From Magnetococcales bacterium (lineage in GTDB: Bacteria > Pseudomonadota > Magnetococcia > Magnetococcales > UBA8363), in contig JADGCN010000003.1 in NCBI GenBank assembly GCA_015228975.1, forward strand, positions 1,617-65,616: a stretch of 64,000 nucleotides of DNA, in the 5' to 3' direction. The notes beneath the pieces are model-generated. The model saw only the letters and a list, made by a program, of their open reading frames with translations. It did not search any database and was not told the origin of the DNA. Shown here piece by piece: positions 8,700-32,100 of the stretch (its first letter is position 1; every line of letters starts with the position of its first letter). Made by a program: the position numbers and the translations under genes.

Positions 8700-8717
8700 A
8701 AGCTCGGAAACCTACTC

Positions 8718-11983: not shown

Positions 11984-12005
11984 GCATCACATCAGAACGC
12001 CGATC

Positions 12006-12152
12006 TTTAAAGTTTGATCGTGCATTCCACCTCATTGCCGGACCCCAGATAGCGCACGTCATCAAAACTGGCTTTGAAGGCGATGGCGATGCCCCTGCCA
12101 TGGGTATCCAGCATCCGTTCGGGGTTGAAATCCAGGTAGGGTTCGTTATCAA
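12006..12152. repeat. Direct repeat copy A (~147 nt)
   Basis: About 97% identical to 12765-12911 by direct comparison. Confidence 0.85.
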
Positions 12153-12212
12153 TTGCCAAGATTGCCATGTTCTACGGCATTGATCAATATTTCCTGCAAA
12201 CCAACCGCATGC
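12006..12212 (-). pseudogene. Remnant of the 3' end of a REC+GHKL gene (copy of 12765-13125 with an internal deletion)
   Basis: 12006-12152 matches 12765-12911 with 4 mismatches. 12155-12205 matches 13075-13125. The translated remnant reads ..[19 protein letters not shown]-stop and is out of frame with the distal part. Confidence 0.7.
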
Positions 12213-12410: not shown

Positions 12411-12758
12411 ATGGGTAACGCTGTTGCATTTGACACTTATGCTGCCATCAAACGCCTGAAGGCCGCTGGTTTTGATGAGGTACAGGCCGAGGCCCTGTCT
12501 GACACGATCAAGGAAGCTCATGATGCACACCTTGATGAACTGGCCACCAAGAGGGACATCAAGGATCTTGACACCAAAATGGAGTCCAATCTCAAAGAGT
12601 TGGAACTCCGCATGGTCATCAAAATGGGGGCCATGATCTTGGCAGGGATTGGCATTTTGTTTGGCCTTATGCGAGCGTGGCCTTTGCCAGTTCAATTCGT
12701 TCCCGTCTCTGGCCAAGAAATACACCAAACAGTTCCGTTGGTCCCGCCAAAGAAATAA
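12411..12758 (+). CDS. DUF1640-family coiled-coil protein with C-terminal TM helix
   Basis: N-terminus FDTYAAIKRLKAAGFDEVQAEAL is characteristic of DUF1640. Strong RBS (AAGGAGAAATTGCC-ATG). C-terminal hydrophobic helix. It is the only plus-strand gene within a ~30-kb run of minus-strand genes here. Confidence 0.7.
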   Translation: MGNAVAFDTYAAIKRLKAAGFDEVQAEALSDTIKEAHDAHLDELATKRDIKDLDTKMESNLKELELRMVIKMGAMILAGIGILFGLMRAWPLPVQFVPVSGQEIHQTVPLVPPKK

Positions 12759-12764: not shown

Positions 12765-12911
12765 TTTAAAGTTTGATCGTGCATTCCACCTCATTGCCGG
12801 ACCCCAGATAGCGCACGTCATCAAAACTGGCTTTGACGGCGATGGCGATGCCCCTGCCATGGGTATCCAGCATCCGTTCGGGGTTGAAATCCAAATAGGG
12901 TTCGCTATCAA
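12765..12911. repeat. Direct repeat copy B (~147 nt, inside the 3' end of the REC+GHKL gene)
   Basis: Partner of 12006-12152. Confidence 0.85.
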
Positions 12912-13662
12912 ATCCGGAACCATCATCACGAATGTGGAAGCTGATTTCATCCTCTTTGCGCGTGAAAAGCACCACCACATGTTTCTCCTGGTTTTCCGGC
13001 AAGGCCAGGCGACGTTTTATTTCCTCCTCGAGTTTATTATTACTATTGAGGATGCCTTTTTCCTCGTAGGTGATGCCCAAGTTGCCATGTTCTACGGCAT
13101 TGATCAATATTTCCCGCAATCCGATTGCTGCCTTTTCCGGATTGGGACAGGTCAAGGACAACAATACCGACAATTGAAAGGCCTCGGACATGGTCTGAAT
13201 CCGAAACCGCGCCTCTTCCATATGCAAAGAGAGCGGACAACGGGTCACCTGAATTTGTCCATACAGGCATTGGTGTGCCGTTTTCCGGTTGATGGCGGCC
13301 TGGACGATCGCGAGCAGGATGGAAATATCCAACGGCTTGGTCAGATAATAGAAGGCGCCAAGTGACAACCCCCTGGCGATATCATCGCTGTTTTTGCGAC
13401 TGGTTGTGAATATGACAGGTATTCTTCTTGTGTATTTTGAGGCATGCAAACGTTCACATACCTCGAATCCATTCATTCCCGGCATTTCCACATCGAGCAG
13501 GATGGTATCGATATTCTCGGTTTGCGCTGTTTTCAGGGCATCTTCACCGTTGGTGGCGACGAGAACCCGGTAATCCTGGCTCAAGGCTTTCGCCAATACT
13601 TTGATATTGCCGGGGATATCATCGACGACCAATACTTTGTGCCGCTTATCGTTTTCGGTCAT
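12766..13662 (-). CDS. Response-regulator receiver fused to a GHKL/RsbW-like ATPase domain
   Basis: REC motifs are KVLVVDD...[14 protein letters not shown]...TKP. The C-terminal half has N-box-like NAVEHGN, G1-like RDDGSGFD and GRGIAI. No HisKA H-box is present. Confidence 0.8.
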
Positions 13663-16520
13663 TTTTTGTTATTATCCTTATGCAATGTGAGTTGCTTGGT
13701 AATGGCCTCCAGAAAAACGAGCGCACCAGTGAAATCAACTTTTTCAAGTTTGTCCGCCAAGGCATCCGTGTTTTTCAACAGCTCGGCATCACCACAGGCT
13801 ACAATGTGTGGTCTGAGAGTTTCAAACACGTCCAATGATTCAAAATAGTGCCCTTCGACCAATTGCGCCAGTTTGCGCACCAAGGGAAGAACCTCGGATA
13901 AATTCAAAGGGGCGTTTTCGGTTGGCGGGAGGGTTGCGGCAAAAAGGTCATCCGTCTGTTTCATCGCGCCGATGGATTGGATCACTTCGGACAAGGCTTC
14001 TTCAAAGTGGGTCAATAAATCTCCTATACAATGGGAATTTTCCCGTAACCCCTTCTCAAGGAGGGACGTTGTTTCAAACAGGCGTGTTGCTGATATATTG
14101 CCCGCTATCCCGCGTATACTGTGGGTAAGTTGCGCGGCCGTTTTCATGTCATCTTTTCTTTTTCCCGCCAGGGTGGTACGAATTTCCCGGGCCACATGGG
14201 CGTAATCACGGTGAAATTCGTAGAGCAGGGAGCGCAATAACTGGCGATCACCGTTCAGCCGTTCCAGGCAGTTGGCCATGTCAATGCCGGCAAGATGTGA
14301 CGGCAACGGGGAACCTTCATCCGCTTTGTTTTTTTCAGCGGTTGCATGCAACGTGATTCCAAGGCCTTCCCGCTTGCGGATCCACTGGCACAGTTTGTCA
14401 TAAAAAATTGTTCTTTCCACGGGTTTGGCCACATGGTCGTTCATCCCGGCTTTCAAGCATTTTTCCCGGTCTCCCGCCATGGAGTGGGCGGTCATGGCGA
14501 TGATGGGCAATTCCGAAAATCCCAGTTGGTTGCGAATTGTTTGCGCAGCTTCAAAACCATCCATTCGCGGCATTTGGATATCCATCAGCACCAGGTCCAA
14601 TTCCAATCCCATTTCCTTGACCCGTTGCACCGCCTCCAGACCATCCCAAGCCATTTCCACGATCACGCCGACCGATTCCAGAAAACCTTCCGCCACCTGT
14701 CGGTTGATCGCATTGTCTTCCACGAGAAGTATCCTGGCACCGCCAATGCGCTGGGCAATGGCCGCAAGATCTGAGAAATCGTCCGATTGACGGCAGGCTT
14801 TGCTAACGGATCGGCCAAACACATTCATGATGGCGTCGAACAACAAGGAGCAATTGACCGGTTTGGAAATCAATCCATCGACCTCGAACACATCCAACTG
14901 ATCCTTGATTTCTTCCTCACGACCATAGGGAACCATGAGCAGGAATTTGGGAGGCGCTTTGTCTTGTTCTGTGGCTTTGATGCGCATGGCGGTTTCCAGA
15001 CCATTCATCCCGGGCATCAACCAATCCACCAGGATCAACTGGAAGGGGTTTCCCTGTTCTTTCGCCTGGACCACCATGGTTTGTGCGGTGTTACCCGATG
15101 CGGTACCGCTGGCCGCGAAACCGAACATCGTCAGGGTATTGATGAAAGCTCTGCGTGCCGTATCGTTGTCATCAACGACCAGGACCCGAAGGCGCTGCAT
15201 GTCATCGGGAGTGATCATATCGATCATTTCCGTACCCAGGCGGCGTTGGAAAAGGGCGGTGAAATGGAACACGCTGCCCTGTCCCGGTTTGGATACCACC
15301 CATATCTTGCCGCCCATCATTTCGACCAATTTGCGGCAGATCGACAGACCCAATCCGGTACCGCCAAATTTGCGGGTGGTGGAGCTGTCGGCTTGGGAAA
15401 AAGGTTGGAACAATCTGGCGATTTGCTCCTCGTCCATGCCAATCCCGGTATCGCGAATGATGAACTCCAATTCGCAATCCCGTTCCGACTCCCGGAGCGT
15501 CCTGACCTGGATTTCGATTTCCCCTTTCCGGGTGAATTTCAGGGCATTGCTGACAAAATTCATCAGCACCTGTTCCAGGCGCAGGGGATCACCGAACAAC
15601 TCATATCGACATTCATCCGACATGCACATCACCAATTCCAGATGTTTTTCGGTGACCTGTGCCTGAAACATGTCGGACAGATGGTCAAAGATATCCCTGA
15701 CCAGGAAATGCGACATATCGAGTTCCAGTTTGCCCGCTTCAATCTTGGAAAAGTCGAGGATATCGTTGATGATGCGCAAGAGTGATCGGGATGAGTTGGT
15801 AATTTTGGTCAGATAGTCGCGCAGGCGCGGCGACATATCGGTCTGCATCGCCAGGTTGGAAAAGCCGATAATGGCATTCATGGGGGTGCGGATTTCATGG
15901 CTCATGTTGGCCAGGAACTGCCCTTTGGCCCGGTTGGCCACTTCTTCGTCCGCCTTGGCTTTTTCCAGTTCGATGAGGTATTGGCGTGTGGTCTCTTCGG
16001 CTCGGATCCGCTTGGTGATTTCAATTTCCAGATCCCGGTTGATACTCCTGAGTTCCAATTCCATTTTCTTGCGTTGGGTCGTTTCCTCTTCCAAGGCTTG
16101 GACGTGGCGTTCCTGTTCCAGGTGTTTTTGATGTAATTTTAAAAATATTTTAACTTTTGAAAGCAAAACGGCATTGTTGACGGGTTTTTGGATGAAATCC
16201 ACCGCCCCCAGTTGATAACCCATGATCCGCTTGTCTTCATCGGAGTGGGCCGCCGTTACGAAAATAATGGGTAAATCTTTCGTCCGTTCCGCCCCGTACA
16301 AGGCTTCCGCCACTTCAAAACCGTTCATTTCCGGCATATTGACATCGAGCAGAATCATGGCGAACTCATGATCCATGCACAACCTCAACACTTCAATCCC
16401 TGAAGTCGCTTCGATGATGTCGGTATCCAGGCGCTCCAGGATTCTCCGCATGGCAACCAGGTTGGCAGGGAGGTCGTCCACGATCAGTATCTTTGGCCGC
16501 GTATCACTCATGTTGGACAT
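13659..16520 (-). CDS. Hybrid sensor histidine kinase: REC-coiled coil-HisKA-HATPase_c-REC-REC-Hpt
   Basis: H-box [12 protein letters not shown]1 and G2 boxes ([22 protein letters not shown]). Three DD...D...K receiver patterns. C-terminal Hpt motif HSIRGIAGN. Confidence 0.9.
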
Positions 16521-17091
16521 TTCCCAATTGCTTCAAGGTGAGTGCAATGGCACTCAAAGGAAGTACCTGATCTGCCGCTCCATGGGCGATGGCATATCGG
16601 GGCATGAACGGGGATTCGGCACTCTGGGGATCCTGAACCAGTGTCATTCCCCGGCGTTGCCGAATTTTTTGCAACCCTGCCGTTCCATCCTGACTGGCAC
16701 CGGTCAATAATACCCCTATCAGACCCGCCTGGTAAACATCAGAAGCGGTTTCAAACAACACATCGATTGCGGGTCGGGAATGGTGTATTGCGGGATCGGT
16801 GGAGAGGGCCAGGGTGAAATCGGGTTCCACCAGAAGATGATAGCCAGGTGGGGCGAAGACGATGTGACCCGATTGGATGGGTTCCTTGTCCATGGCTTCA
16901 CGTACCGGCAGACGGCAATGCAGGGCCAATAACGAGCAACCTCGGGGGCCTGAACCATGGGTCGGCTGATGCTGGACCACCAGTATGGGAACAGGGAATC
17001 CTTCGGGAAAAACCGGGAAAAGGGTACGCAATGCCTGGAATCCCCCTGCCGATGCCCCGATGACAATAGCCCGGGGTCGGGGAAAGGTCAT
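16504..17091 (-). CDS. cheB: CheB-type protein-glutamate methylesterase, catalytic domain only (no receiver)
   Basis: Ser-His-Asp contexts are IGASAGG, LVVQHQP and TGASQDG. At 195 aa it has no N-terminal REC domain. Confidence 0.85.
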
Positions 17092-17921
17092 GGCCCCACC
17101 TTTTGTTGGTAAATGCGTTGGTCTCTGGATATCGGGATGAATCGGTTTTCCACAGCGGTGAAAGACAAGGATTCATGGCTCCCCAGGCACAATATACCCC
17201 CGGCAACCAAACTTTTCTCAAAAAGGAGCAGGACTCGATTGGTTAATTCTTTGTTGAAATAGATCAGCACATTCCGGCAAAAAATCAAATGGGTCTCGGA
17301 AAAAACATGGTCGGTGGCCAAATTGTGCGCGGCAAAGACGATATTTTCCTTCAGCGCGGCATGTATGCGTGCCAAATCATACCTGGAATGATAATAATCA
17401 GAGAGTGCGCCTTTGCCAGCGCTATCCAGATAGCCTTGGGACGACTCAATCATGCTGTTGATGTTATAAATACCCTCTTTGGCGATTTGTAAAGAATGAT
17501 CGTTGATATCGGTGGCAAAGATTCGTACCCGCTCGTACAATCCCTCTTCACGTAACAGGATGGCCAAGGAATACACCTCTTCCCCGGTGGCACAACCGGC
17601 ATGCCAAATCGTGACAAAGGGATAGGTTGCCAGCAAGGGTATCACCTGTTTGCGCAAGGCCCGGTAACACAGGGGATCGCGAAAAAAATGCGTTACGGTT
17701 ACCGACAAAGCATGGACCAGGCGATTCAAAAATGTGCGATCATGAATGACTTTCGGGATGGCTTCGGAAATAAGGGTGATACCGCATTCCGACAGACACT
17801 GACGCATGCGACGCTTCAGAGAGGCCTGGGCATACTGGCGAAAATCGTACCCATAGCGTAGAAATATGGTCTCCAACAGGAGCCGTATCTCTAAATTTTC
17901 AATCTCTGCTTCCGATTTCAT
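17088..17921 (-). CDS. cheR: CheR-type protein-glutamate O-methyltransferase
   Basis: FFRDP motif and SAM-binding IWHAGCATGEEVYSLAILL, then IFATDIN. I place the start at ATG 17921 (MKSEAEIENLE...), 4 nt after the upstream stop. The longer ORF from 18026 would overlap that upstream gene. Confidence 0.85.
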   Translation of the reverse strand: MKSEAEIENLEIRLLLETIFLRYGYDFRQYAQASLKRRMRQCLSECGITLISEAIPKVIHDRTFLNRLVHALSVTVTHFFRDPLCYRALRKQVIPLLATYPFVTIWHAGCATGEEVYSLAILLREEGLYERVRIFATDINDHSLQIAKEGIYNINSMIESSQGYLDSAGKGALSDYYHSRYDLARIHAALKENIVFAAHNLATDHVFSETHLIFCRNVLIYFNKELTNRVLLLFEKSLVAGGILCLGSHESLSFTAVENRFIPISRDQRIYQQKVGP

Positions 17922-17925
17922 GGAC

Positions 17926-20214
17926 TTAATCCACCAAGGCGGCAAGTTTATCAAGCAGCAAAACCATATCCACCGGCTTTGCCATATGATCATTGGCTCC
18001 CGCTGCCATGGCCCGACGCCGATCATCGTCCATGGCTTTGGCGGTCAGGGCGATGATCGGTAAATGGCTCCATTGCGGGTTTTCCCGCAGGCGGCGTATC
18101 GTCTCGTAGCCATCCATCACCGGCATCATCACATCCATGATGACGCAGTCGATGGATTTAAATTTTTCCAAGGACTCCAATGCTTTCGCCCCATTGGCGG
18201 CCATGAGTGTCTTGAGTTGATACCGCTCCAGTTCCCGGGTCATGGCGTACAGGTTGCGCACATCATCGTCTACCAACAACACTGTTTTATCGTAAAGGTT
18301 ACAGTGCCTTTCCCGGGTTGCGACAAGCGATGTGGTTGGCGATGTTTCCTCGGGTGATGGGGCTACTGACGTTTCGCCCAATATAAGGGTCATCTCCTTG
18401 AGCAACCGCGCCGGGGAGTGTGCCCCCTTGACCACAATGGCATCGGTGAATCTTTTCAATCGGTCGTATTCGTCTCGTGACAACTCCTGACCGGAATAAA
18501 CAATCGTCGGCGGCTTCACCAAGGCGGACTCCAGTGCCAACTGTTCCAGCCAGTCCAATCCATGGATATCAGGGAGCTGTAAATCGAGAATCATGCAAGC
18601 GAATGGTCGTTCCCGGAGCAGGGTCAATGCCTGGATACCCGTGGCTGCCTGGGTCACCTGCACCGGGTAGGAGCGCAACAAATGCATCAAGGAGGCACAC
18701 GCGTTGGCATCGTCCTCGATAAGCAGCAGGGGGCATGGGGCCATCATGGTATATTTCGCGGGCAATGATAGTGTTTCCGATGCCGAATCTTCGTCGATCC
18801 CGGTACGGAATGTCGAATCGGGTAGCCCTGGGGGGATCGCCAATGCCGCTGACGCATTTGTCACGGGGGAACCTTGCCCCTCCTTGCCTTTTACGTGGGT
18901 TGACAGCGCTTGGATCATCCTGGAAAGATCACAGCCCGATTCATAAATCAGGGCTGCATCGGCCAATTGTCGATCGTTCAGGTTGTGGTAGGCATTGTCA
19001 GAAAAACTCTTTGCAAGGATCATCAACGTGTTCAATGGGGTACGTAGATCATGTGACAGTTCGGCCAAAATTTCGGATTTGGTGTCGATAGCCCATTGCA
19101 ACTCTTTGGCACGAAGCTGTAGTGCCTCCTGAGTTTTGGTGAGTTCCAGATTTTTTCTCTCCACCTCTTGCTTTTGCTCTGCGATCAAACGGGCATGATT
19201 TTCCATGGCTTCGTTGGCGACACGCAACTCTTCCTTTTGTTCCTGGAGTTGCGTCTGCGCCAGTTGCAAATCAATTTTTTGCTCCTGAAGCCTGGCGTTG
19301 GACTGACGCAAGGCGCGACTTGAGATACGTAGAGATTGGCTTTGTTCACGCAGTTTGGCCAAATTTTTTTCGGTGAGTTCATGGGCCAGGGCCGCACTGA
19401 TGGCCATGGCGACACTTTCGCTGACGCTGGTTAAGAAGGCGAGATGCGTATCGGTAAAGGTGGTGAACGTACCCAGTTCCAAAACGGCGTTGACCTTATC
19501 ATGCTGCATAAATGGAAATATCAACAACACCTTGGGGACGGCCCCGCCCAGACCCGATTGGACTTCGATATGCCCGGGAGGTACCTTGGTGATGAGGAGA
19601 TACTGTTTTTCCAGAAGAACCTGCCCCACCAATCCTTCACCGGGGACGAACACATGATTGGGTGATTTGCGAAGCTGATAGGCATAGCTGCCCAGCATGC
19701 GGATGCTGCCTTCATGATTCATGGCATAAAAAGCCCCCATGGACGCTCCCAGGTATTGGGAAAGGAAGGCGACCACGGCGCTGCTGAGAGCGGGTAATTC
19801 ATTTTTTTCCCCAAGAAGTTTGTGGAGCAGGGCCGCACCTTCCTGGTGCCACTGGATTTGCGATTGAATTTTATGCTGTTGCGCCACATTTTCCGCCAGG
19901 GTATTCAATCCCCGTCCCAACCGACCGATGACACCCCGTTCCTGATCGGCGAAGCGAACCGTCATGTCCCCCGCTGCCATTTGGGTGAGTACCTGTTCCA
20001 GTTGTTGCAGCTCCGCACTTTGGCGTCGCTCGTACAGCCAAACCAGACCACCTCCCAAGGCCATCAACGACAACGCGATCATCGCCCAGGCAAGCATTTC
20101 CTTTGTATGCGGAAAAAATTCCCAGGACAGGTGAACCAGCAGCAAAATGGCTGCTGCACCGAGAAATACGGTAACAAGGGTGCCTCTTTTATGGGGTTGG
20201 GTGCCGATGTTCAT
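17926..20214 (-). CDS. Membrane HAMP-GAF-coiled coil-HisKA-REC-REC protein lacking an HATPase_c domain
   Basis: Two TM helices with a short loop, then HAMP-like and GAF-like segments. H-box LSHDLRTPLN is at aa 386-395. Only about 75 aa separate the DHp region from the first REC, and no N, G1 or G2 boxes are present. Confidence 0.8.
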   Translation of the reverse strand: MNIGTQPHKRGTLVTVFLGAAAILLLVHLSWEFFPHTKEMLAWAMIALSLMALGGGLVWLYERRQSAELQQLEQVLTQMAAGDMTVRFADQERGVIGRLGRGLNTLAENVAQQHKIQSQIQWHQEGAALLHKLLGEKNELPALSSAVVAFLSQYLGASMGAFYAMNHEGSIRMLGSYAYQLRKSPNHVFVPGEGLVGQVLLEKQYLLITKVPPGHIEVQSGLGGAVPKVLLIFPFMQHDKVNAVLELGTFTTFTDTHLAFLTSVSESVAMAISAALAHELTEKNLAKLREQSQSLRISSRALRQSNARLQEQKIDLQLAQTQLQEQKEELRVANEAMENHARLIAEQKQEVERKNLELTKTQEALQLRAKELQWAIDTKSEILAELSHDLRTPLNTLMILAKSFSDNAYHNLNDRQLADAALIYESGCDLSRMIQALSTHVKGKEGQGSPVTNASAALAIPPGLPDSTFRTGIDEDSASETLSLPAKYTMMAPCPLLLIEDDANACASLMHLLRSYPVQVTQAATGIQALTLLRERPFACMILDLQLPDIHGLDWLEQLALESALVKPPTIVYSGQELSRDEYDRLKRFTDAIVVKGAHSPARLLKEMTLILGETSVAPSPEETSPTTSLVATRERHCNLYDKTVLLVDDDVRNLYAMTRELERYQLKTLMAANGAKALESLEKFKSIDCVIMDVMMPVMDGYETIRRLRENPQWSHLPIIALTAKAMDDDRRRAMAAGANDHMAKPVDMVLLLDKLAALVD

Positions 20215-20217
20215 GGT

Positions 20218-23964: not shown

Positions 23965-24041
23965 GGAGCGTCTCTATCCGTTCTTAAAGATTCCGAACGG
24001 TTGCAGTGGTGTGATCATCGGTAATCATTCGGTTGCCACTT

Positions 24042-24455
24042 TCATGAAGATCCGACTTGCTCATCGCGGTGCCGCTTCGCAGCAACATGAGTGCGAACAA
24101 GTTCCAACAGCGTGGGGGGGCTCACCGGTTTGGTGAGATAACCGGCTGCTCCCAACGCCAATCCTTTGTTTTGATCCGCCTCGTCGTTCCGTCCCGTGAC
24201 AAACAGGATACAGATTTCAGAAGTTTCATGATTGCTTTTTATGGCGGTACATACCTCATAACCATCCATTTCCGGCATGGTAACGTCCAACAAAACAAGG
24301 TCAATTCTTTCCCGGTCGATGAGCTTCAGGGCATCTTTGCCGCTGGTGGCCATGCGCACCTGAAACTCCTCCCGCAAAATGATCGCCAGTGTTTTAATGT
24401 TTCCGGGAACATCGTCAACAATCAATACCCGAGCCCTTTCATCAGCAGCAGTCAT
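24042..24455 (-). CDS. Single-domain response regulator (CheY-like receiver)
   Basis: 137 aa, with VLIVDD...LLDVTMPEMDGYEV...TKP. The start overlaps the upstream stop (ATGA). Confidence 0.85.
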   Translation of the reverse strand: MTAADERARVLIVDDVPGNIKTLAIILREEFQVRMATSGKDALKLIDRERIDLVLLDVTMPEMDGYEVCTAIKSNHETSEICILFVTGRNDEADQNKGLALGAAGYLTKPVSPPTLLELVRTHVAAKRHRDEQVGSS

Positions 24456-27157
24456 GACTTATCGTTCCCAAAATCCATATCCAACGCCTTGGCCAAGGCG
24501 CAGAGTGTCGCCGAGGCTGCAGAAAAGTCGATCCGATCAATCTGCTCCTCCAATTGTTTGATTGTCTCCAGGATCCCCTTGTTCCCGCTCATCAGATGGG
24601 GTTTGAGGGCATCAAACGTATCTTGAGTTTCCACTGCCCCCAACCCGATTTCCCGAGACAACTTGCGCATCAGGGGAAAGACGGCGTCTTCGTTGATTGT
24701 TGTTGCCATCGTCGTGACATCGGATGAATCATGATTGGTTTTCCCCCGCTCCTCACGTTGCAACTGCGAGATGGTTTCCAATACCTCGGCCAAGGCTTCT
24801 TCAAAAGAGTCCATGCCGCTCACCATTTCTTCCAAAGATCCGGCGATCCCTTTCTCCAGGGTCAGCGCGGCATTGTAGAGGCGGGGGGCGGAAATGTTAC
24901 CCGCAATTCCTTTGATGGTGTGAATCAGACGGGTCACTGCCAGGGTCTTTTCCTCCTGCTTGCTCAGCAATCCGTCACGAACCTGTCTGGCTGCCTGGGC
25001 ATAATCTTTATGAAACTCAGTGAGCAGGGAGCGATAAACCCGGCGGTTACCAGCAAGGCGTTCCATGGCGGTCTGCCAATCGAGGCCAGGCAAGTTTTGC
25101 GGAAAATCCAACCCATCGTTCCTTGGCATCTCTGGTTTTCCGGGAGGGGGCACCATGCCCAACCCGTCCCGTGGGGCAATCCTTTTGACGAGGGTACTGT
25201 AAAGCTGCCTCCTGTCGATGGGCTTGGTGATATGATCATTCATTCCAGCCTGCAAACTTTTTTGCCGGTCACCCGTCATGGCATGCGCCGTCATGGCAAC
25301 AATGGGCAGGGTATCTTTTCCTGGCAATTCACGGATACGACGCGTTGCCTGGTAGCCATCCATGACCGGCATTTGGATGTCCATCAGTACGATATCATAC
25401 ATGTTTCTGGTCACTTTGATGACCGCCTCCCTCCCGTCCTGGGCCGTTTCCGTCACACAGCCCACTTCCTGCAACAATTCCAAGGCCACTTGGCGGTTGA
25501 TGGCATTGTCTTCGACCAGCAATACCTGCGCACCGCCTATTTTTGCCATGACATCGGCAGCATGGATGGTTTTCTTGCTGCGGCGAATTGTTTTGGTGGC
25601 TTGCCGTCCAAAGGTGTTCATGATTTTATCAAACAGGATCGAACAATTGACCGGCTTGGGGAGATAATCAGTTACCCCAACTGCTTTTCCCTGGCTCCGC
25701 AACTGTTCTTCACGGTCGTAGGGGCCCAGAAGCAACGTTTGGTAAGGGGACTCGGGGATATTGTGTTCTTTAAGGTGCTGTGCGGTTTGAATGCCGTCCA
25801 TCTCTGGCATGAGCCAATCCAGCAATACCAATTGGAACGGGGCGTTTTCGGCAATGGCTTGTTGAAAAGCGGCAACGGCTTCCTTGCCAGAACCGACTAC
25901 CGTCGGTGCCAATCCAAACATGGCGAGGACTTTTTCCATGGCCCGGCGTGCCGTTGCATTGTCATCAACCACCAGGGCTTTGAGTCGTTCCAATTCATCG
26001 GGAATGCTTAAATCCTTGTCCATGTCGCCGATAATGCGATCAAAGCCAATGGTGAAACGAAATGCGCTGCCTTGACCCGGGGTGGAGGATACGTCGATGG
26101 TTCCGCCCATCAACGCCACCAGTTTTTTGCTGATGGAAAGCCCCAGACCGGTACCACCGTAGCGGCGGGTGACGGAGGAGTCCGCCTGGGAAAATGCCTG
26201 AAAAAGCATTTCCAACGCGCTTTCCGACATGCCAATGCCGGTATCACGAACCGTAAATTGTAGATCCACCCGGGTTGGTGATTCCTGGAGAGTGGTGACC
26301 TGGATCTCGATTTCACCCTCTTCGGTAAATTTCAAGGCATTGCCAACCAGGTTCATTAAAATTTGTTCCAGGCGCAGCAAGTCGCCAATCAGTTCGTAGC
26401 GGCACTCATCCGAATAACACAGGATCAGTTCAATATGTTTCTCGGTTGTTTGGATGCGAAACATATCGGCCAGATGATCAAAGGCGTCACGCAACAGGAA
26501 TGGTGCCTGCTCCAACTCCAGTTTACCCGCGTCAATCTTGGAAAAATCAAGAATATCATTGATAATGCGTAATAATGATTGTGATGAATGAGAAATTTTT
26601 CCCAGATAATCGCGTACCTTGGGGGGCAGTTCCATCCGCAGGGCCAAATCGGACAAGCCGATGATGGCGTTCATCGGTGTACGGATTTCATGGCTCATAT
26701 TGGCGATAAATTCACTCTTGTATTGATTGACCTCACGCAATTGCGCGGTTATGCGTTGCAATTCCTCCCGTTGCCTTTTGATCAATACCTGATTGTTGAC
26801 CCGGGCCATGACCGCAAAGGGATTAAATGGTTTGGTGATATAATCAATGGCCCCGTGCGCCAATCCCATGGCTTCATCATGGGTGCTGTCGCGGGCAGTC
26901 AGGAAGATGATGGGAATGTCCCGGGTTTCTTCCTTGGCTTTGAGACGCATGCAGACGTCGAATCCGTTCAAATGCGGCATCTCGATGTCCAGGAGGAGTA
27001 CATCGGGTTGGAATTGCGTGACCACCTCCAAAGCTTCCAACCCATCGGTGGCAATGGCAATTTCGTATTCGGCAGCCAACATTTCCACCAATATTTTAAT
27101 ATTGCCGGGAGAATCTTCCGCGATGACGATTTTGGCTTTGGAGGTCGTGGTCGACAT
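24452..27157 (-). CDS. Hybrid sensor histidine kinase: REC-HisKA-HATPase_c-REC-REC-Hpt
   Basis: Same architecture as 13659-16520 and clearly paralogous. H-box [10 protein letters not shown], HATPase boxes, three receivers and Hpt motif HTIKGIAGN. Confidence 0.9.
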   Translation of the reverse strand: MSTTTSKAKIVIAEDSPGNIKILVEMLAAEYEIAIATDGLEALEVVTQFQPDVLLLDIEMPHLNGFDVCMRLKAKEETRDIPIIFLTARDSTHDEAMGLAHGAIDYITKPFNPFAVMARVNNQVLIKRQREELQRITAQLREVNQYKSEFIANMSHEIRTPMNAIIGLSDLALRMELPPKVRDYLGKISHSSQSLLRIINDILDFSKIDAGKLELEQAPFLLRDAFDHLADMFRIQTTEKHIELILCYSDECRYELIGDLLRLEQILMNLVGNALKFTEEGEIEIQVTTLQESPTRVDLQFTVRDTGIGMSESALEMLFQAFSQADSSVTRRYGGTGLGLSISKKLVALMGGTIDVSSTPGQGSAFRFTIGFDRIIGDMDKDLSIPDELERLKALVVDDNATARRAMEKVLAMFGLAPTVVGSGKEAVAAFQQAIAENAPFQLVLLDWLMPEMDGIQTAQHLKEHNIPESPYQTLLLGPYDREEQLRSQGKAVGVTDYLPKPVNCSILFDKIMNTFGRQATKTIRRSKKTIHAADVMAKIGGAQVLLVEDNAINRQVALELLQEVGCVTETAQDGREAVIKVTRNMYDIVLMDIQMPVMDGYQATRRIRELPGKDTLPIVAMTAHAMTGDRQKSLQAGMNDHITKPIDRRQLYSTLVKRIAPRDGLGMVPPPGKPEMPRNDGLDFPQNLPGLDWQTAMERLAGNRRVYRSLLTEFHKDYAQAARQVRDGLLSKQEEKTLAVTRLIHTIKGIAGNISAPRLYNAALTLEKGIAGSLEEMVSGMDSFEEALAEVLETISQLQREERGKTNHDSSDVTTMATTINEDAVFPLMRKLSREIGLGAVETQDTFDALKPHLMSGNKGILETIKQLEEQIDRIDFSAASATLCALAKALDMDFGNDKS

Positions 27158-27166
27158 AAATTCCCC

Positions 27167-30100
27167 CTACAGGTTCATGTGTAATTGTCCAGCCAGACCC
27201 CTCAAGGTAACACGGGCAGCCTTGAAAACATATCGGTCCATTTCTTCCTGCAATTGCATACATTCTTGCGTGAATCCCCCACGCAGCAGGAGGTGTTTGA
27301 TCGCTGCAAAATTTCCCACCGCATCCACTTTGGCCTGCCTCAGAAGGTCATCCAGTTCCAACAAGGCGGTGCGTACACTTTCCAACTCTTCGATGGTCAA
27401 AGGGGCGACCGCAATCGTTTCCTCAACGCTGACCAACGGCTCCATGGCAGAAATGGCTGCGACAACCTCCTGCATATGTAACGAGAAATTCTGAAGTATT
27501 TCAGTCGCATCACTTCCCTGATCAATGGCCTTTTCCAAGGCGCGTGCATCCTCCATGACGTGGTTGGCCCCGAGATTACCGGCAGAACCTTTGATTTTAT
27601 GGACCAATTGTCTGGCTGATTTCGTATCCCCTCGCGCCATGGCGGCATCGATCTCTCCAGGGACATGCGCATACTCCCGTTTGAATTCGAGCAACAATTG
27701 TTTCAACAATTCCCCATTGCCCATGACTCGGGATAGCGCCGCGACCACGTCAATGCCGTCGATTTTATCCATCGCGGGACTTGGGGAACGCGTTATTCGT
27801 AAAAGTTCCCGGTCAACTTTTTTGCGATGTTCCCCCCCTTGATCAGGGTGGATGTGGGACAGCAACACCGAAAACAATGTTTTGGGTTCAAAAGGTTTTC
27901 CGATATGATCATTCATCCCCATGGATAACGATTTTTCCCGATCACCCTCCATGACGTGGGCGGTCATGGCGATGATGGGGAGTTTGGCAAAACGGGGATT
28001 GGCGCGAATCAAGGTCGTAGCGGCATAACCATCCATGATCGGCATTTGAATATCCATCAACACGGCGTCATACGCCCCCGCTTCGACCATGCGCACTGCT
28101 TCCTCCCCATCGTTGGCCACATCGACGCGTATGCCCACGGCCTGCAACACTTCTCGCGCCACCTGCTGATTGATGGGGATATCCTCTACCAGCAATACAT
28201 GATGACCGCCAAGTTTATCAATTATTTCAGCGTGTTTAACGTCATTCTGCCTTCGTCCATGCGGTTTGGCGACCGCATGACCCATGACCGTCATCATGGC
28301 GTCCAACAAACGATTTTTCATAATCGGCTTGTTCAGGAATGTTGTCAAACCCGACTGATGGCATTGGTGCAGCAGGGATTCTTCCTGGTCATAAGCGCTC
28401 ATGAGCAGCAATTTTGGCGGGGAGACGCCGTAGCGGTCACCAAGTTCGCGCAGTTTGTTCGCTGTCTCCAAACCATTCATCCCCGGCAGGCGATAATCCA
28501 AAAACACCATGGAATACGGAGTGCCGGCAAGGATCGCCCGTTCCATTTCGACGATGGCTTCCGCGCCCGACGCCACAAGTGACGGTGGGTGCGTGATCGT
28601 GCTGAGCATGTCATGGAAAATGATGCGTGCCACTTCATTATCATCGACCACCATCACTTTCAAATCCTGGAATTCCTCTGGCAGAAAGGGTTTCTGCCGT
28701 TCTCCGTTGTCATTCTTTTCGCACAGGATGGAAAAATGAAAGCGCGCCCCCTCTCCGGGACGACTGTCGACTCCAATCGTTCCCCCCATCATTTCCACCA
28801 AATTTTTGCAGATGGAAAGACCCAGTCCGGTACCGCCGTATCGGCGGGTGGTGGAACCATCCGCCTGGACAAAAGGACGAAACAGCCCGGCGATCTGTTC
28901 CTGCGACAAACCGATGCCACTATCCCGCACCGAAAATTCCAGGCGAACCCGATTGGTCACCATGGTGTCAGGGCCCCCTGAATCCTTGTCGGGATTTCCG
29001 GCGTTATCCGCAATGAACTGACCCTCTCTGGCCTGGACGTGGACAATGCCACCCTGGGTAAATTTCAAGGCGTTGGCTATGAGGTTCGTCAGTACCTGCT
29101 CCAGACGCATGGCATCGCCGGATAAAAAGGTTGGACACGATGGTGAAATCTCCATCATCAGTTCAATATTTTTTTCTGCCGCTGGAATGCGAAACAAATC
29201 GGTCAGTTGTTCAAAGATGTCCGCCAGATAAAAGGGAGACGATTCCAAGGTCAACTTTCCGGCTTCCATTTTGGAGAAGTCCAGAATGTCGTTTATAATT
29301 CTTAAAAGTGAACGGGATGCGCCATCAATCTTGATCAGATAATCTCGAACCTTGGGGGGGGCATCGGCTTGAAGTGCCAAACCCGCCAAGCCTAATACGG
29401 CATTCATGGGGGTGCGAATTTCATGGCTCATGTTGGATAAAAATTGACTTTTGGCCAGATTGGCCTGGTCCGCTTCCTCTTTGGCACGCAAAATTTCTTG
29501 TTCGGCCTGTTTGCGCAGGGAAATGTCGTTGATCAAACAAAGCAGGTGGGGTTGTTCCTGAATCAGAACCGTGGAAAAATGGATATCCAACCATACCTCT
29601 TTGCCAAACGATGTCCTCATGAAAAGGTCACACTGTCTGTCCTGGCGGGTACGGATCGTTTCTTCGGCCATATCCATCAGGTTGGTACGGCGCCATGCTT
29701 CCAAATCCCTGTAGTTCGTTTGCATCAAGACATTGGCAGTGGTTCCCAGAATCAACCCGGCAGCGGGATTGGCCAGGACGCAAATCCCTGATTCCACCTG
29801 ATAGACGATAACGCCATAGGCGGCGTTTCCCACCACCTTTTGGTTTAACTCCATGGCTTGTTCCTCCGCCAGGAGCGTCGCATGCAACTCGACGATCATG
29901 TGATCAAAAGCCTGGGTCAAGACGACCAACTCATCCTTGCGGGAGGCGACCATCTGGCTGGTACGGAGTCGTTCCTGGCTGATTGCGACCAAAGAGGCCA
30001 GTTGGCCAGTGGCCACCGAGGTCACGATGTGGACCATGCGATCAATGGGTTTGGTAAACCGTCGGGCCATGGCATAGGCGATCAACAGCGCCATTCCGAT

Positions 30101-30976
30101 GACCATCAGCGAGAACAGGATCACTTGATTTTGCAAGGTGGTGGCAATGGCAAACGCCTCCGACCTTTTCAATGAAACCAAGACGCTCCAACCTTCCCCT
30201 GGATAATCAAGAAATCCTTTCGCGTCCGCACCAAAAATAAATTGTTCATTGTTTGTCAATGAAAAATTATAATCATTGCTATAGATTCGTTTTGAACGCC
30301 CACCGCCGAGATTGCGCCTCGACATGAATTTTTTATTGCTATAACTTGAATAAAGCAATCGTCCGTTGCTGTCGATCAGGTCATAGCGGAATCCAAGTTC
30401 ATCCACAACCTCATGGTCGAACAAAAATTTGAATTGCTCCACACTGATCACAGTGACCAACACACCACGGGGTGATGCATCGTCAGGGCAATGAACCAGC
30501 TTGGTAATGGCCACGACATTTTCACCCAATTCGTCGGAATGAGCCAACACAACGGAATGGTCGGTGTTTATCAGACGATCCCAACCAAGTTCACCCGCCC
30601 CTCCGGCCTCCCAGGCCTTGCCAATGCCCAAACCGCTGCTCCCTATCTCGCGTACACCGGAAATGTTGAAATAGGAAATATCCAGATAAACACCGTAAAT
30701 GTTGCGGAAATTTGCAAATTGTCTGGTAATTTTCTCTTTTGAAATGGGTGTTTCGCAAAACAAGGGATTGCTGCTCAGTAAACGGGCATCGCCCAAGCGT
30801 TCAAACAACATGAGATCCACCCGCTTCATCGCCAATGCCGCTTGCGTACTCAGAGTGTGTATGACATTGGCCTGCAAATGGTTGGTCAAAAGCGCATTGG
30901 CGATGATTGCAATGCCCAATCCGGTGATGATCACCAGACTGGCCGAGAGGAGCATGAGTTTTAGGGAAAATTTCAC
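27167..30976 (-). CDS. Hybrid sensor histidine kinase: TM-periplasmic (Cache-like)-TM-HAMP-PAS-HisKA-HATPase_c-REC-REC-Hpt
   Basis: Two TM helices flank a ~270-aa extracytoplasmic region. H-box [10 protein letters not shown], HATPase boxes, two receivers and Hpt motif HKIKGSAGN. Confidence 0.9.
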   Translation of the reverse strand: MKFSLKLMLLSASLVIITGLGIAIIANALLTNHLQANVIHTLSTQAALAMKRVDLMLFERLGDARLLSSNPLFCETPISKEKITRQFANFRNIYGVYLDISYFNISGVREIGSSGLGIGKAWEAGGAGELGWDRLINTDHSVVLAHSDELGENVVAITKLVHCPDDASPRGVLVTVISVEQFKFLFDHEVVDELGFRYDLIDSNGRLLYSSYSNKKFMSRRNLGGGRSKRIYSNDYNFSLTNNEQFIFGADAKGFLDYPGEGWSVLVSLKRSEAFAIATTLQNQVILFSLMVIGMALLIAYAMARRFTKPIDRMVHIVTSVATGQLASLVAISQERLRTSQMVASRKDELVVLTQAFDHMIVELHATLLAEEQAMELNQKVVGNAAYGVIVYQVESGICVLANPAAGLILGTTANVLMQTNYRDLEAWRRTNLMDMAEETIRTRQDRQCDLFMRTSFGKEVWLDIHFSTVLIQEQPHLLCLINDISLRKQAEQEILRAKEEADQANLAKSQFLSNMSHEIRTPMNAVLGLAGLALQADAPPKVRDYLIKIDGASRSLLRIINDILDFSKMEAGKLTLESSPFYLADIFEQLTDLFRIPAAEKNIELMMEISPSCPTFLSGDAMRLEQVLTNLIANALKFTQGGIVHVQAREGQFIADNAGNPDKDSGGPDTMVTNRVRLEFSVRDSGIGLSQEQIAGLFRPFVQADGSTTRRYGGTGLGLSICKNLVEMMGGTIGVDSRPGEGARFHFSILCEKNDNGERQKPFLPEEFQDLKVMVVDDNEVARIIFHDMLSTITHPPSLVASGAEAIVEMERAILAGTPYSMVFLDYRLPGMNGLETANKLRELGDRYGVSPPKLLLMSAYDQEESLLHQCHQSGLTTFLNKPIMKNRLLDAMMTVMGHAVAKPHGRRQNDVKHAEIIDKLGGHHVLLVEDIPINQQVAREVLQAVGIRVDVANDGEEAVRMVEAGAYDAVLMDIQMPIMDGYAATTLIRANPRFAKLPIIAMTAHVMEGDREKSLSMGMNDHIGKPFEPKTLFSVLLSHIHPDQGGEHRKKVDRELLRITRSPSPAMDKIDGIDVVAALSRVMGNGELLKQLLLEFKREYAHVPGEIDAAMARGDTKSARQLVHKIKGSAGNLGANHVMEDARALEKAIDQGSDATEILQNFSLHMQEVVAAISAMEPLVSVEETIAVAPLTIEELESVRTALLELDDLLRQAKVDAVGNFAAIKHLLLRGGFTQECMQLQEEMDRYVFKAARVTLRGLAGQLHMNL

Positions 30977-31035
30977 AGTTATGGACCACTTTATTGCAAT
31001 TTATAACACTCCGGAAGAAGTGGCCTGCATAGGGG

Positions 31036-32064
31036 TCACCCCGGTCCTTTCCCAAGGGTGGCGGGGGCTTCAATGCCCTGGATGAAACGGGCATCGATCA
31101 GATCATCAAGGTCTGGAATGGCACGCAATCCCCCCCGCTTTACAAGAAATTTGATTATGTTTTCACCGCTTTGAAACAAAGATGTCGGCGATCCAGAGCG
31201 GGTCAGAGCTGTGCGGTTGTCTTCCCAGGTGGCCCGATGAATTTCATCCAAGCCGTCCGACATTTCTTTCACCGTCATTCCCACGGCGTTGGCCATGAGT
31301 GCCAATGATTCCTCTTTGTGATCCACCATGTATTGTCTGGCTTCCACCAATGATCGGACCAAACCTTGAACTTCCATGGGGCGCTGGGCGACCACTTTGG
31401 CATCCACAAATGCCAAATCAATGATAATCCCCGGCACATCCCTGGCCTTGGCCAAAATGGTATACCCCTTCGCCAAAGCCTGGGAAGAGGTCGGTTGCCA
31501 GGTATGTCCCGCATCGATGCGCCCTTCTTCCAAGGCTTTCAACACATCCGGGGCTTTGACCCGTTCAAACTTGACCGCCCATTCGTCCAACCCATATTTT
31601 TCCAAAGCGCTGATGACGAAAATATGCGAAAATGAATTGATGGTTTCAAAGCTGACCCTGCGTCCCTTGAGGTTGGCCAGAGTTGTCAACTCGGGGCGAC
31701 CAATGATGACATCGCCATCCTGGGAAAAATCGTTCACGTATACAATTTTTATGGGATATCCCAGGGCGCGCAATGTGATCACGTCAGGATAAACGGCGTC
31801 CAGTACGCCATCCAAGCCGCCATTCTTATAGGAAACCAGTGAATCGGCAGGCCCTTTTTCCATGTGCAACTGCACCGAAACGCCATTTTTCTTGAAAAAT
31901 CCTTTTTTCTCCGCCAGAAAGACATGGGCGGAACCGGGCCATGGATCCACAGCCATGTGCAATGGTCGAGTGACCTCAGAAGGTGTTGTCCAAGGACGGT
32001 GCCATATGAGGAGTCCCAACCCGGCGATAACCATCAAAACCATCCATAAAACACCCTTTTTCAT
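31036..32064 (-). CDS. Periplasmic substrate-binding protein, NMT1/SsuA/TauA (NitT/TauT) type
   Basis: Signal-like MKKGVLWMVLMVIAGLGLL. The two-lobe SBP pattern resembles sulfonate, nitrate or bicarbonate binders. No ABC permease or ATPase gene is adjacent. The start is uncertain (ATG 32064 or GTG 32097). Confidence 0.65.
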   Translation of the reverse strand: MKKGVLWMVLMVIAGLGLLIWHRPWTTPSEVTRPLHMAVDPWPGSAHVFLAEKKGFFKKNGVSVQLHMEKGPADSLVSYKNGGLDGVLDAVYPDVITLRALGYPIKIVYVNDFSQDGDVIIGRPELTTLANLKGRRVSFETINSFSHIFVISALEKYGLDEWAVKFERVKAPDVLKALEEGRIDAGHTWQPTSSQALAKGYTILAKARDVPGIIIDLAFVDAKVVAQRPMEVQGLVRSLVEARQYMVDHKEESLALMANAVGMTVKEMSDGLDEIHRATWEDNRTALTRSGSPTSLFQSGENIIKFLVKRGGLRAIPDLDDLIDARFIQGIEAPATLGKGPG

Positions 32065-32100
32065 ATTCCGCAAACCTTTCTCGGATACGGGTGTCACACC

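Follow-up and report, generated by a model that had tools for sequence, protein, structure and literature searches.

In this paper we examine a stretch of 64,000 nucleotides from a Magnetococcales bacterium (contig JADGCN010000003.1, positions 1,617 to 65,616 of the forward strand; the whole stretch is called the window below and all coordinates refer to it), and within it a cluster of ten signal transduction genes occupying positions 12766-32097 of the minus strand. A preliminary description had read the cluster as one integrated multikinase network that has no output domain and belongs to no named pathway. We consider it fairly probable that the cluster represents two tandem phosphorelay modules, tuned by a CheR methyltransferase and a CheB methylesterase and equipped with outputs, and not a single output-less network. 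Module A consists of a periplasmic solute-binding protein (SBP), two hybrid kinases of 1269 and 901 amino acids (p1269 and p901) and a single receiver of 137 amino acids (REC137), whose GGDEF partner has apparently been lost. Module B consists of two GAF proteins of the hybrid kinase type (p1248 and p762), CheR, CheB, a kinase controlled by its own receiver (p953) and a regulator of 298 amino acids (p298), in which a receiver is joined to a domain of the anti-sigma type.

The division is best visible in the related locus L092. Its genes follow each other in the order methyl-accepting chemotaxis protein (MCP), TP_methylase, SBP1, a kinase of 1262 aa, a REC-kinase of 900 aa, a REC-GGDEF protein of 304 aa and a second NMT1-type SBP of 406 aa (SBP2), after which come a dCache-GAF kinase, a GAF-HisKA-REC protein, CheR, CheB and a REC-kinase. 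Each half has an SBP at its start and an output regulator at its end, so we regard the halves as two self-contained units. REC137 (24042..24455) is 77 % identical over 132 aa to the receiver of the REC-GGDEF protein of L092 (Pfam GGDEF 1.6e-49). On the DNA level, the window and L092 are collinear on both sides of a gap (82.7 % and 80.5 % in blastn), in which about 1.74 kb of L092, containing GGDEF and SBP2, corresponds to about 76 nt of the window. These are the 77 nt between REC137 and p1248 (23965..24041), which we interpret as a deletion scar and as the boundary of the modules. REC137 would then be the retained stump of an ancestral REC-GGDEF response regulator. Three metagenome-assembled genomes (MAGs) that are 94-98 % identical to the window share its state without GGDEF and SBP2. 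We read this state as a deletion in the lineage of the window for two reasons: an SBP gene is found a short way upstream of the first GAF kinase in locus L090, and proteins of the REC-GGDEF type are standard. Few genomes bear on this polarity. With p298 recognized as a REC plus anti-sigma-type regulator and REC137 as a remnant of REC-GGDEF, the view that the cluster has no output domain is no longer tenable.

The same boundary is suggested by the wider distribution of module B. We scanned one genome per species with the family of CheB proteins that lack a receiver, kept the best 80 loci and annotated their open reading frames (ORFs) with our own domain hidden Markov models (HMMs), built from the domains of the window itself; many of the contigs end early. 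The loci come from at least 12 phyla, among them Chloroflexota, Bacteroidota, Bdellovibrionota, Cyanobacteria, Verrucomicrobiota, Acidobacteriota, Desulfobacterota, Myxococcota and Nitrospirota, and from three classes of Pseudomonadota. What recurs in them is a unit on one strand, usually with overlapping genes, that contains a GAF-HisKA-HATPase-REC-REC-REC kinase (~1000-1300 aa), CheR, CheB without REC and an effector headed by REC. CheR is adjacent in 75 of the 80 loci, a GAF hybrid kinase and a REC-kinase are each present in 57, and all three occur together in 43. In Bacteroidota the order is CheR, CheB, GAF kinase, REC-kinase. When the gene following CheB does not code for a REC-kinase, it codes most often for an enzyme of cyclic di-GMP (c-di-GMP) metabolism: a sample of ten such genes contained four REC-GGDEF, four REC-PAS-GGDEF-EAL, one REC-HD-GYP and one truncated REC-HisKA protein. 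Enzymes of c-di-GMP metabolism are thus the commonest output of the module elsewhere.

Closer to the window, the whole ten-gene order is kept in the three MAGs mentioned above, whose proteins are the closest in the database and which are labelled as Magnetococcales. The run p1248-p762-CheR-CheB-p953 alone is kept in two further Magnetococcales loci, L090 and L091, with proteins 54-68 % identical, and the gene content upstream of the GAF kinase differs there. No gene for a receiver fused to a Bergerat-fold domain (the architecture of p298) was seen in L090 or in L091, the contig of the latter ending one partial gene past the REC-kinase. The opinion of the preliminary description that the cluster is not a chance pile-up is borne out, since the arrangement recurs in independent genomes.

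The anatomy of the array was largely described correctly before. The ORF map contains all ten consecutive minus-strand genes where they had been placed, and direct reading of the sequence agrees with the reported junctions. From SBP towards p298, the genes are separated by 59 nt (SBP/p1269) and 9 nt (p1269/p901), overlap in ATGA (p901/REC137, -4 nt), are separated by 77 nt (REC137/p1248), 3 nt (p1248/p762) and 4 nt (p762/CheR), and overlap again in ATGA (CheR/CheB, -4 nt), by 17 nt (CheB/p953) and in ATGA (p953/p298, -4 nt). The distance of 4 nt between p762 and CheR assumes that CheR has 277 aa and starts at 17921, the start annotated in relatives. Pfam and our own HMMs agree on the architectures and give 14 REC, five HisKA, four HATPase_c, three Hpt, two GAF, one PAS and three HAMP domains; for REC, HisKA, HATPase_c and Hpt these are the counts given earlier. 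The phospho-acceptor aspartate and the conserved lysine are kept in 14 of 14 receivers, the H-box histidine in five of five H-boxes and the histidine of Hpt in three of three. A scan for sigma-70 promoters between 11900 and 31899 yielded 25 sites against 17.4 +/- 4.6 in shuffled sequence, and a scan for intrinsic terminators in the same range yielded 18 against 24.5 +/- 4.4; none of either kind lies at a junction. Both counts are near the shuffled expectation, so the scans say nothing about operon structure.

The two interleaved paralogue families proposed earlier are real, judging from their identities, and old. Over their full length p901 and p953 are 45 % identical, p1269 shares 40-41 % with either of them, and p1248 and p762 share 35-36 %. 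These low values (35-45 %), together with the 21 % identity of the two SBPs of L092, rule out a recent tandem duplication as the origin of the ten genes; the divergence of the SBPs means likewise that the modules are not recent duplicates of each other. The receivers fall into three similarity classes. The first, input-type class contains the receivers of p298 and REC137 and the first receivers (R1) of p901 and p953, with 36-46 % identity. The second, middle class contains p953-R2, p901-R2 and p1269-R1. The third class contains the relay receivers preceding Hpt (p953-R3, p901-R3 and p1269-R2, 53-59 %); the receivers at the ends of p1248 and p762 also group here.

An alternative we find unlikely is that all ten genes constitute one integrated and previously undescribed multikinase network, which processes its signals jointly, has no dedicated output and directs an output encoded elsewhere. 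The genes do lie on the same strand with overlapping or very short junctions, their whole order is kept in the 94-98 % identical MAGs, and the halves of L092 are just 26 nt apart; moreover, the paralogous kinases and the shared input-receiver class (p298, REC137, p901-R1 and p953-R1) would permit cross-phosphorylation. Against such a network stand the two units of L092 with one SBP and one output regulator per half, the occurrence of module B without module A in many phyla, and the different regions upstream of the GAF kinase in L090 and L091. Furthermore, output domains are present or recently lost, and the core has named homologous systems (PMC4951495, PMC4574943, PMC8175716, PMC13269768). 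Preferring two modules, we still hold cross-talk between them and a single transcript for possible.

Module A starts with an SBP of the NMT1/SsuA type (31036..32097; Pfam NMT1 7e-17, with a match to NCBIfam SsuA_fam below its cutoff) that is 92 % identical to SBP1 of L092. Counted from GTG at 32097 the protein has 353 aa, with a hydrophobic N-terminal segment at residues 15-33. The start proposed earlier, ATG at 32064, is possible, and GTG is equally a candidate, so the start is ambiguous. Its longest ORF begins 3 nt after the end of a gene for a Transposase_31 (YhgA-like) protein with DUF4351 (32101-33039, minus strand). This gene lies between TP_methylase and SBP in the window and in three MAGs (including L094 and L095; p901 94 % identical) and is absent in L092, so that it is best regarded, from gene content, as a lineage-specific insertion.

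The second gene codes for a membrane sensor hybrid kinase, p1269 (27167..30976), with the order transmembrane segment, dCache-like domain, transmembrane segment, HAMP, PAS, HisKA, HATPase_c, REC, REC and Hpt. It is followed by p901 (24452..27157), a cytoplasmic REC-controlled hybrid kinase (REC, HisKA, HATPase_c, REC, REC, Hpt) and a diverged paralogue of p953. Orthologues of p901 in the same position are 94 % identical in L094 and 88 % identical in L092, and most named matches among its 120 best are from Magnetococcales. This order shows a massive expansion of (sensor)-HisKA-HATPase-REC-REC-Hpt kinases, whose sensor domains are of many kinds. As for the two Cache sensors reported previously, in p1269 and p1248, the two-transmembrane topology of both kinases fits a periplasmic domain, and this part of the statement stands; the domain assignment is weaker, since both dCache_1 matches (31 and 24 bits) stay under the Pfam gathering score of 45. 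In relatives, dCache_1 is matched by orthologues of p1248 and by none of those of p1269.

Module B opens with p1248 (20218..23964), a membrane sensor hybrid kinase composed of a transmembrane segment, a dCache-like domain, a second transmembrane segment, HAMP, GAF, a long helix, HisKA, HATPase_c, REC and REC. Over its full length it shares 54-55 % identity with the first GAF kinases of L090 and L091. With the GAF kinases that accompany CheR and CheB in Stutzerimonas, Fischerella and Flavobacterium it shares about 35 % over some 800 aa. The next gene codes for p762 (17926..20214), a paralogue with the order transmembrane hairpin, HAMP, GAF, long helix, HisKA, REC, REC. It retains the H-box SHDLRTPLN and has no ATP-binding domain, and so we call it kinase-dead. 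Its orthologues in L090, L092 and L094 likewise have no ATP-binding domain, and the orthologue in L091 has one. The possibility that p762 is an artefact of assembly or frameshift is ruled out, as five genomes contain the form without the ATP-binding domain and its evolution is constrained. Duplication of the GAF kinase with one kinase-dead copy seems to be specific to Magnetococcales.

The feature that connects these kinases with CheR and CheB is a helix. In all GAF kinases linked to CheR and CheB a long helix precedes the H-box, whose sequence (20 protein letters, not shown) is very conserved, and this helix bears QQEELRxxNEELEEQ repeats. The strict motif EELxxxNEEL was found in 52 of 58 such kinases, where it starts at positions -87, -80, -73, -66, -59 and -52 from the SHE of the H-box. 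The offsets differ by multiples of 7, which places the motif in a coiled-coil (heptad) register with the phospho-acceptor histidine. Both p1248 and p762 possess one relaxed copy, EELRVSNEAL (22000..22029) and EELRVANEAM (19204..19233), respectively, each at -59 and thus at an offset of the family; these are candidate sites of glutamate methylation. In p953, p901 and p1269 the motif was not found. All domain features of RsbK/CfcA-type kinases are present in p1248, and p762 has all of them except HATPase_c. We propose, on this sequence evidence, that p1248 is a kinase of this type and a substrate of methylation.

The cluster CheR (17088..17921; Pfam CheR 6e-40 with CheR_N) is a glutamate methyltransferase of 277 aa from a kinase-associated clade. 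It shares 49-56 % identity with CheRs that are linked to kinases in other phyla, and 27 % with the classical CheR found beside CheW and MCP in the window. Its companion CheB (16504..17091, 195 aa; Pfam CheB_methylest 1e-53) is a methylesterase without REC whose catalytic residues Ser14, His41 and Asp135 are invariant in our alignment A1 of homologues; all of its 120 best homologues have 180-223 aa and no REC. On the basis of the CheR identities and the helix motif, we propose that the substrate of both enzymes is the helix of the GAF kinases and not an MCP. Two loci contain fusions. In a Sericytochromatia MAG (L040, 8985-11429) one ORF comprises CheB methylesterase, REC, HisKA and HATPase, and in Flavobacterium xanthum (L087, 8013-11615) CheB, CheR, HisKA and HATPase are fused. 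The former arrangement gives a hint that the receiver-less CheB may make use of the receiver in the kinase encoded downstream.

One might object that CheR and CheB are ordinary chemotaxis enzymes that adapt MCPs and merely happen to lie among kinase genes. Both catalytic domains are intact, many MCP genes are expected in Magnetococcales genomes, and a 4HB-HAMP-MCPsignal chemoreceptor of 520 aa (34087-35649), kept in L092 and L094, is encoded on the same strand 2 kb upstream of the cluster. We regard this as very improbable. As reported previously, no CheA, CheW or MCPsignal domain was found by Pfam in the ten proteins, and CheB, like its 120 closest homologues, has no receiver that would couple it to CheA; the cluster thus departs from the classical Che pathway. 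Across the 80 loci the enzymes co-occur with GAF kinases (57 loci, including Flavobacterium and other Bacteroidota) and not with MCPs. The window also contains a separate classical set on the minus strand (61506-63991), with an MCP (62867-63991), CheW (62351-62833) and the second CheR (61506-62354), the one with 27 % identity. Finally, a role of the Pseudomonas putida counterparts in chemotaxis was reported to be ruled out (PMC4951495).

The gene after CheB codes for p953 (13659..16520), a hybrid kinase with the order REC, HisKA, HATPase_c, REC, REC, Hpt. Its 430 N-terminal amino acids are 64 % identical to the CheB-adjacent kinase of L091, 56 % to that of L090 and about 41 % to those of other phyla, and these identities exceed those of p901. 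By sequence, p953 is best seen as equivalent to the REC-kinase encoded after CheB in other phyla, i.e. to the kinase in the position of CfcD. A search of the PDB with its kinase part returned 21 matches with E <= 1e-20; none of them is named LvrB, and most are deposited just as 'Histidine kinase'. On this basis we do not assign p953 to the LvrB family.

The last gene of the array, p298 (12766..13662), codes for a response regulator with REC (Pfam 3.7e-27) and a Bergerat-fold HATPase_c_2 domain of the RsbW type (2.7e-9). Its sole solved full-length homologue is LvrC (PDB 9qih; phmmer 2.5e-14, residues 34-294). The title of this entry is response regulator LvrC from Leptospira, although its chain bears the name "SenB". 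A profile of the C-terminal domain finds LvrC with 1.2e-18. The AlphaFold2 model of p298 has a mean confidence (pLDDT) of 90, and that of the C-terminal domain alone 90.5. When the latter is compared with known structures by Foldseek, LvrC comes first (TM score 0.78-0.79), SpoIIAB, RsbW and the mycobacterial anti-sigma-F follow, and the ATP-binding domains of kinases score lower. In 51 family members the N-box, G1 and G2 residues are invariant (E184, N188, D246-x-G248-x-G250, G269-R-G271), and between N-box and G1 all of the family shares an insertion, some 40 residues long and conserved, that classical RsbW does not have. We therefore describe p298 as a putative REC-gated anti-sigma factor or serine kinase, homologous to LvrC.

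The family of the C-terminal domain is large, with 1770 representatives at 50 % clustering and E <= 1e-10; among the 150 best matches listed, most have about 300 aa and carry the domain in their C-terminal half. A kinase gene lies directly upstream of the p298 homologue in a betaproteobacterium (L001), in a Magnetococcales MAG (L007) and in one locus with the CheR/CheB module (L043), and one gene away from it in a gammaproteobacterial MAG (L093), where the kinase is 55 % identical to p901. Other homologues are orphan genes. In L093 (2719-10691) a REC protein, DGCcoil-GGDEF, REC-HK-REC-Hpt, REC-HD-GYP and REC-HATPase_c_2 (51 % identical to p298) stand in a row, and one kinase seems to be shared by a c-di-GMP phosphodiesterase and a regulator similar to LvrC. 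Look-ups of the exact sequences of the 298-aa and 137-aa proteins gave no match.

The terminal regulator might also act in a different manner, namely as a REC-regulated serine kinase of a STAS antagonist, as in HsbR/HsbA and SypE/SypA, or as a GHKL ATPase with another target, without sequestering any sigma factor. Several things speak for it. The ATP-binding residues of N-box, G1 and G2 show no exchange within the family, LvrC was crystallised with ADP and Mg (PMC13269768), its nearest structural neighbours SpoIIAB and RsbW are serine kinases of STAS proteins, and CfcA/CfcR of P. putida is linked to the STAS protein HsbA (bioRxiv 10.1101/2024.11.25.625174). We nonetheless consider this alternative rather doubtful. 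No STAS gene was found in the window or beside the homologues examined, Pfam finds no PP2C domain in p298, unlike in HsbR and SypE, and the insertion between N-box and G1 sets p298 apart from classical RsbW. An anti-sigma role of p298, gated by its receiver, is the version we use in the model below.

Downstream of p298 lies an internally deleted duplicate of the 3´ end of its gene, a pseudogene fragment (12003..12202, minus strand) recognizable from direct repeats of 150 nt (97 %) and 49 nt (90 %). It is found about 760 bp beyond the intact gene, and a plus-strand ORF for a CCDC90-like protein of 115 aa (12411-12758) lies between. Loci L004-L006 show the same layout, with a second CCDC90-like ORF beyond an FAD oxidoreductase.

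Such fragments raise the question whether the array is partly decaying, i.e. whether REC137 and p762 are non-functional relics and module A lost its function together with GGDEF. The deletion of GGDEF and SBP2, the loss of the ATP-binding domain in p762, the transposase-like insertion beside SBP and the pseudogene fragment of the p298 gene would all agree with this. To judge selection, we estimated the ratio of nonsynonymous to synonymous substitution rates (dN/dS) by the method of Nei and Gojobori against L094 and L092, for the eight genes from SBP to CheB. The values are 0.10-0.27, with the one exception of CheB, which reaches 0.49 in the comparison with L094, where the changes are few, and 0.21 in that with L092. 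REC137 has 0.15 against L094, a comparison within the truncated lineage, and p762 has 0.19-0.27, in both cases no more than the intact genes. These low values imply that the orphaned receiver and the kinase-dead paralogue are maintained by selection. In addition, both ORFs are intact in four genomes, the catalytic residues are all kept, and the state of p762 without the ATP-binding domain is common to the more distant L090. Decay of the array is therefore quite improbable.

The statement that the cluster corresponds to no named pathway has to be withdrawn. Its core matches the cfcABCD, bmsA and RsbK-RsbM types (PMC4951495, PMC8175716, PMC4574943), and its terminal pair of kinase and regulator has the architecture of LvrB-LvrC (PMC13269768). 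The preliminary description itself had allowed that kinship with an already characterised phosphorelay would undo its claim of novelty, and since the core does have characterised counterparts, much of this claim falls. It is true that none of the five kinases reaches an NCBIfam equivalog model at its curated cutoff, so that none is assigned to BarA/GacS, TorS, ArcB, RcsC or LuxQ; the best scores are 514-520 bits for BarA (cutoff 890) and 405-447 bits for TorS (cutoff 676). The papers on Arthrospira, Azospirillum and S. stutzeri that we consulted contain nothing on the CheR/CheB-kinase module.

One of the closest known systems is the cfcABCDE cluster of P. putida KT2440. Its CfcA (PP_3761) is a CHASE3/GAF hybrid kinase and CfcD a REC-kinase, and the target that CfcA activates is CfcR, an orphan regulator of the REC-GGDEF/EAL type (PMC4951495, PMC6849547). 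[quoted passage not shown] A context of bmsA, CheR, CheB and hybrid kinase is also described for P. alkylphenolica and P. brassicacearum (PMC8175716). All of them share with module B the order of four genes: GAF hybrid kinase, CheR, receiver-less CheB and REC-kinase. Enzymes of c-di-GMP metabolism, the commonest output of the module elsewhere, would also be the ancestral output of the neighbouring module A. The sequence relationship to CfcA, BmsA and RsbK was assessed through a pseudomonad representative, Stutzerimonas (L047); p1248 is 35 % identical to its kinase over 803 aa, CheR 49 % and CheB 50 %. The differences from cfc are a dCache-like sensor in place of CHASE3, a duplicated GAF kinase with one kinase-dead copy, an extra REC-REC-Hpt tail on the REC-kinase, and a cis-encoded output of the REC-anti-sigma type where cfc has an orphan REC-GGDEF/EAL protein.

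The precedent for methylation is found in Bacillus cereus. There the CheR-like RsbM methylates RsbK in its signalling helix and thereby sets the activity of the kinase, which controls sigma-B via RsbY; 127 RsbK-like kinases from 10 phyla are cited in the same paper (PMC4574943). Similar to the GAF kinases here, RsbK has HAMP, GAF, a signalling helix before the H-box and a C-terminal REC, and it is served by a dedicated methyltransferase of the CheR type. Its system ends in an alternative sigma factor controlled through RsbW-type proteins (PMC4574943), which resembles the endpoint we propose for p298. RsbM has no paired methylesterase, whereas a receiver-less CheB is translationally coupled to CheR here. 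RsbK acts directly on the REC-PP2C phosphatase RsbY and through it on RsbV, whereas here an intermediate REC-kinase with Hpt would act on a receiver fused to the RsbW-like domain. Moreover, in contrast to the RsbK locus, no RsbV-like or sigma gene lies nearby.

The second half of the proposed pathway has its parallel in Leptospira. LvrC, consisting of REC and a Bergerat fold, receives phosphate specifically from LvrB, a REC-controlled kinase that the hybrid kinase LvrA activates in turn, and the authors of this work interpret LvrC as a REC-gated anti-sigma factor (PMC13269768). p298 is homologous to LvrC over both domains, p953 begins with REC-DHp-CA like LvrB, and both systems have three tiers, i.e. 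sensor kinase, REC-controlled kinase and REC-anti-sigma protein. p953 differs by its extra REC-REC-Hpt part, and the transfer to p298 would thus probably proceed via Hpt and not directly from the histidine. The lvr genes are not accompanied by CheR and CheB, and lvrC is not adjacent to lvrAB, whereas the gene of p298 overlaps that of its kinase. 

Two further comparisons are more distant. In HptB-HsbR-HsbA of Pseudomonas and SypE/SypA of Vibrio, several hybrid kinases likewise converge through Hpt on a response regulator with an RsbW-type HATPase_c_2 domain, and the HsbR/HsbA pathway of P. putida physically meets CfcA/CfcR (bioRxiv 10.1101/2024.11.25.625174). HsbR and SypE, however, carry PP2C and adjoin the gene of their STAS substrate, and neither feature was found here. 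With classical Che, Wsp and Frz systems the cluster shares the use of CheR and CheB on glutamates of a coiled-coil signalling protein for adaptation. It differs in that the unit has no CheA, CheW or MCP, CheB has no receiver, and the presumed substrate is the helix of a kinase and not the adaptation region of an MCP. By analogy, the locus would work like a fusion of an RsbK/CfcA-type module with methylatable kinase and an Lvr-type pair of REC-kinase and REC-anti-sigma protein.

A possible model of the pathway is as follows. In module B (23964-12766), p1248 would sense an external ligand. Its gain would be set by reversible methylation of glutamates in the helix before the H-box (EELRVSNEAL), where CheR adds and CheB removes the methyl groups, after the model of RsbM acting on the signalling helix of RsbK. 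p762 probably modulates p1248, be it by pairing with it in a heterodimer or by serving as a shuttle or sink for phosphate. Phosphate would then pass from p1248 to the N-terminal receiver of p953, as from LvrA to LvrB or, as has been proposed, from CfcA to the REC domains of CfcD and CfcR. Within p953 it would be relayed from the histidine to the aspartate of the third receiver (R3), further to Hpt and finally to the receiver of p298. p298 would hold or release a sigma factor, and the output would thus be transcriptional. The similarity classes of the receivers are consistent with such a flow. Module A (32097-24042) would be a parallel, SBP-assisted relay in which SBP and p1269 signal to p901 and p901 to REC137; its output would once have been a REC-GGDEF diguanylate cyclase and would now be a bare receiver. 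Methylation of the kinase, every phosphotransfer step, binding of a sigma factor and co-transcription are inferred by analogy with the systems discussed above.

Several observations weigh against this interpretation. Firstly, the helix motif of p1248 and p762 is single and degenerate (NEAL and NEAM for NEEL), while two strict copies are present in most of the family. RsbK of B. cereus is the one GAF kinase shown to be methylated by a CheR, and it has no paired CheB (PMC4574943). Secondly, the anti-sigma role is inferred even for LvrC, with its sigma partner unidentified (PMC13269768). The profile of the C-terminal domain of p298 matches RsbW marginally (E 0.32), and a scan of every sizeable ORF of the window found neither a sigma factor nor a STAS gene. 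The REC-Bergerat gene occurs in one of the 80 module loci (L043) and is absent from the corresponding position of L090; a methylatable GAF kinase with CheR/CheB is thus rarely combined with an output of the LvrC type. Thirdly, similarity classes of receivers predict the specificity of phosphotransfer weakly, and the short spacing of the two modules in L092 would still allow for a single operon with cross-talk.

Going one step further, and quite tentatively, we may imagine the locus as an analogue of chemotactic adaptation on the level of transcription. CheR and CheB would then provide memory and adaptation to a three-tier relay leading to a REC-gated anti-sigma factor, p762 would be a methylatable heterodimer partner or phosphate sink, and the downstream kinase would use its receiver to control the receiver-less CheB in trans. 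If this were true, the kinase-dead methylatable p762 as a regulated partner or sink and the trans-controlled CheB would both be features that have not been described before.

As for the neighbourhood, TP_methylase (33141-33932, minus strand) follows the upstream MCP gene, and this pair is conserved in L092 and L094. A plus-strand run convergent with the cluster (4600-10888) codes for MotA/ExbB-like and OmpA/MotB-like proteins, a PilZ protein of 198 aa, a PilZ-containing protein of 603 aa, a glycosyltransferase and a polysaccharide deacetylase. The run is kept in L004-L006 and may represent a c-di-GMP-controlled polysaccharide or stator system. We also noted other genes of signalling and mobile-element type, for an EAL-CBS-GGDEF protein (46423-48480, minus strand), an FHA protein with two cNMP-binding domains (49562-51256, plus strand) and a RhuM-family protein (56850-57896, minus strand).

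Taken together, the module with CheR/CheB-linked GAF kinases spans a dozen phyla, including plant-associated and clinical genera, and its mechanism is known in fragments, namely from the methylation of the helix in B. cereus and from the genetics of CfcA/CfcR in P. putida. The locus described here joins this module of a presumably methylatable kinase to the recently described LvrC type of regulator and suggests that the two partial stories are one design. It also offers natural variants for dissection of the pathway: a kinase-dead paralogue kept by selection, a receiver orphaned by the deletion of GGDEF, and fusions in relatives. Large "output-less" kinase clusters as a separate category need correction, since the outputs were here either overlooked or recently lost. 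Lastly, the heptad-registered EELxxxNEEL may serve as a simple sequence rule to predict methylatable kinases, a rule possibly stated already in comparative work on RsbK.

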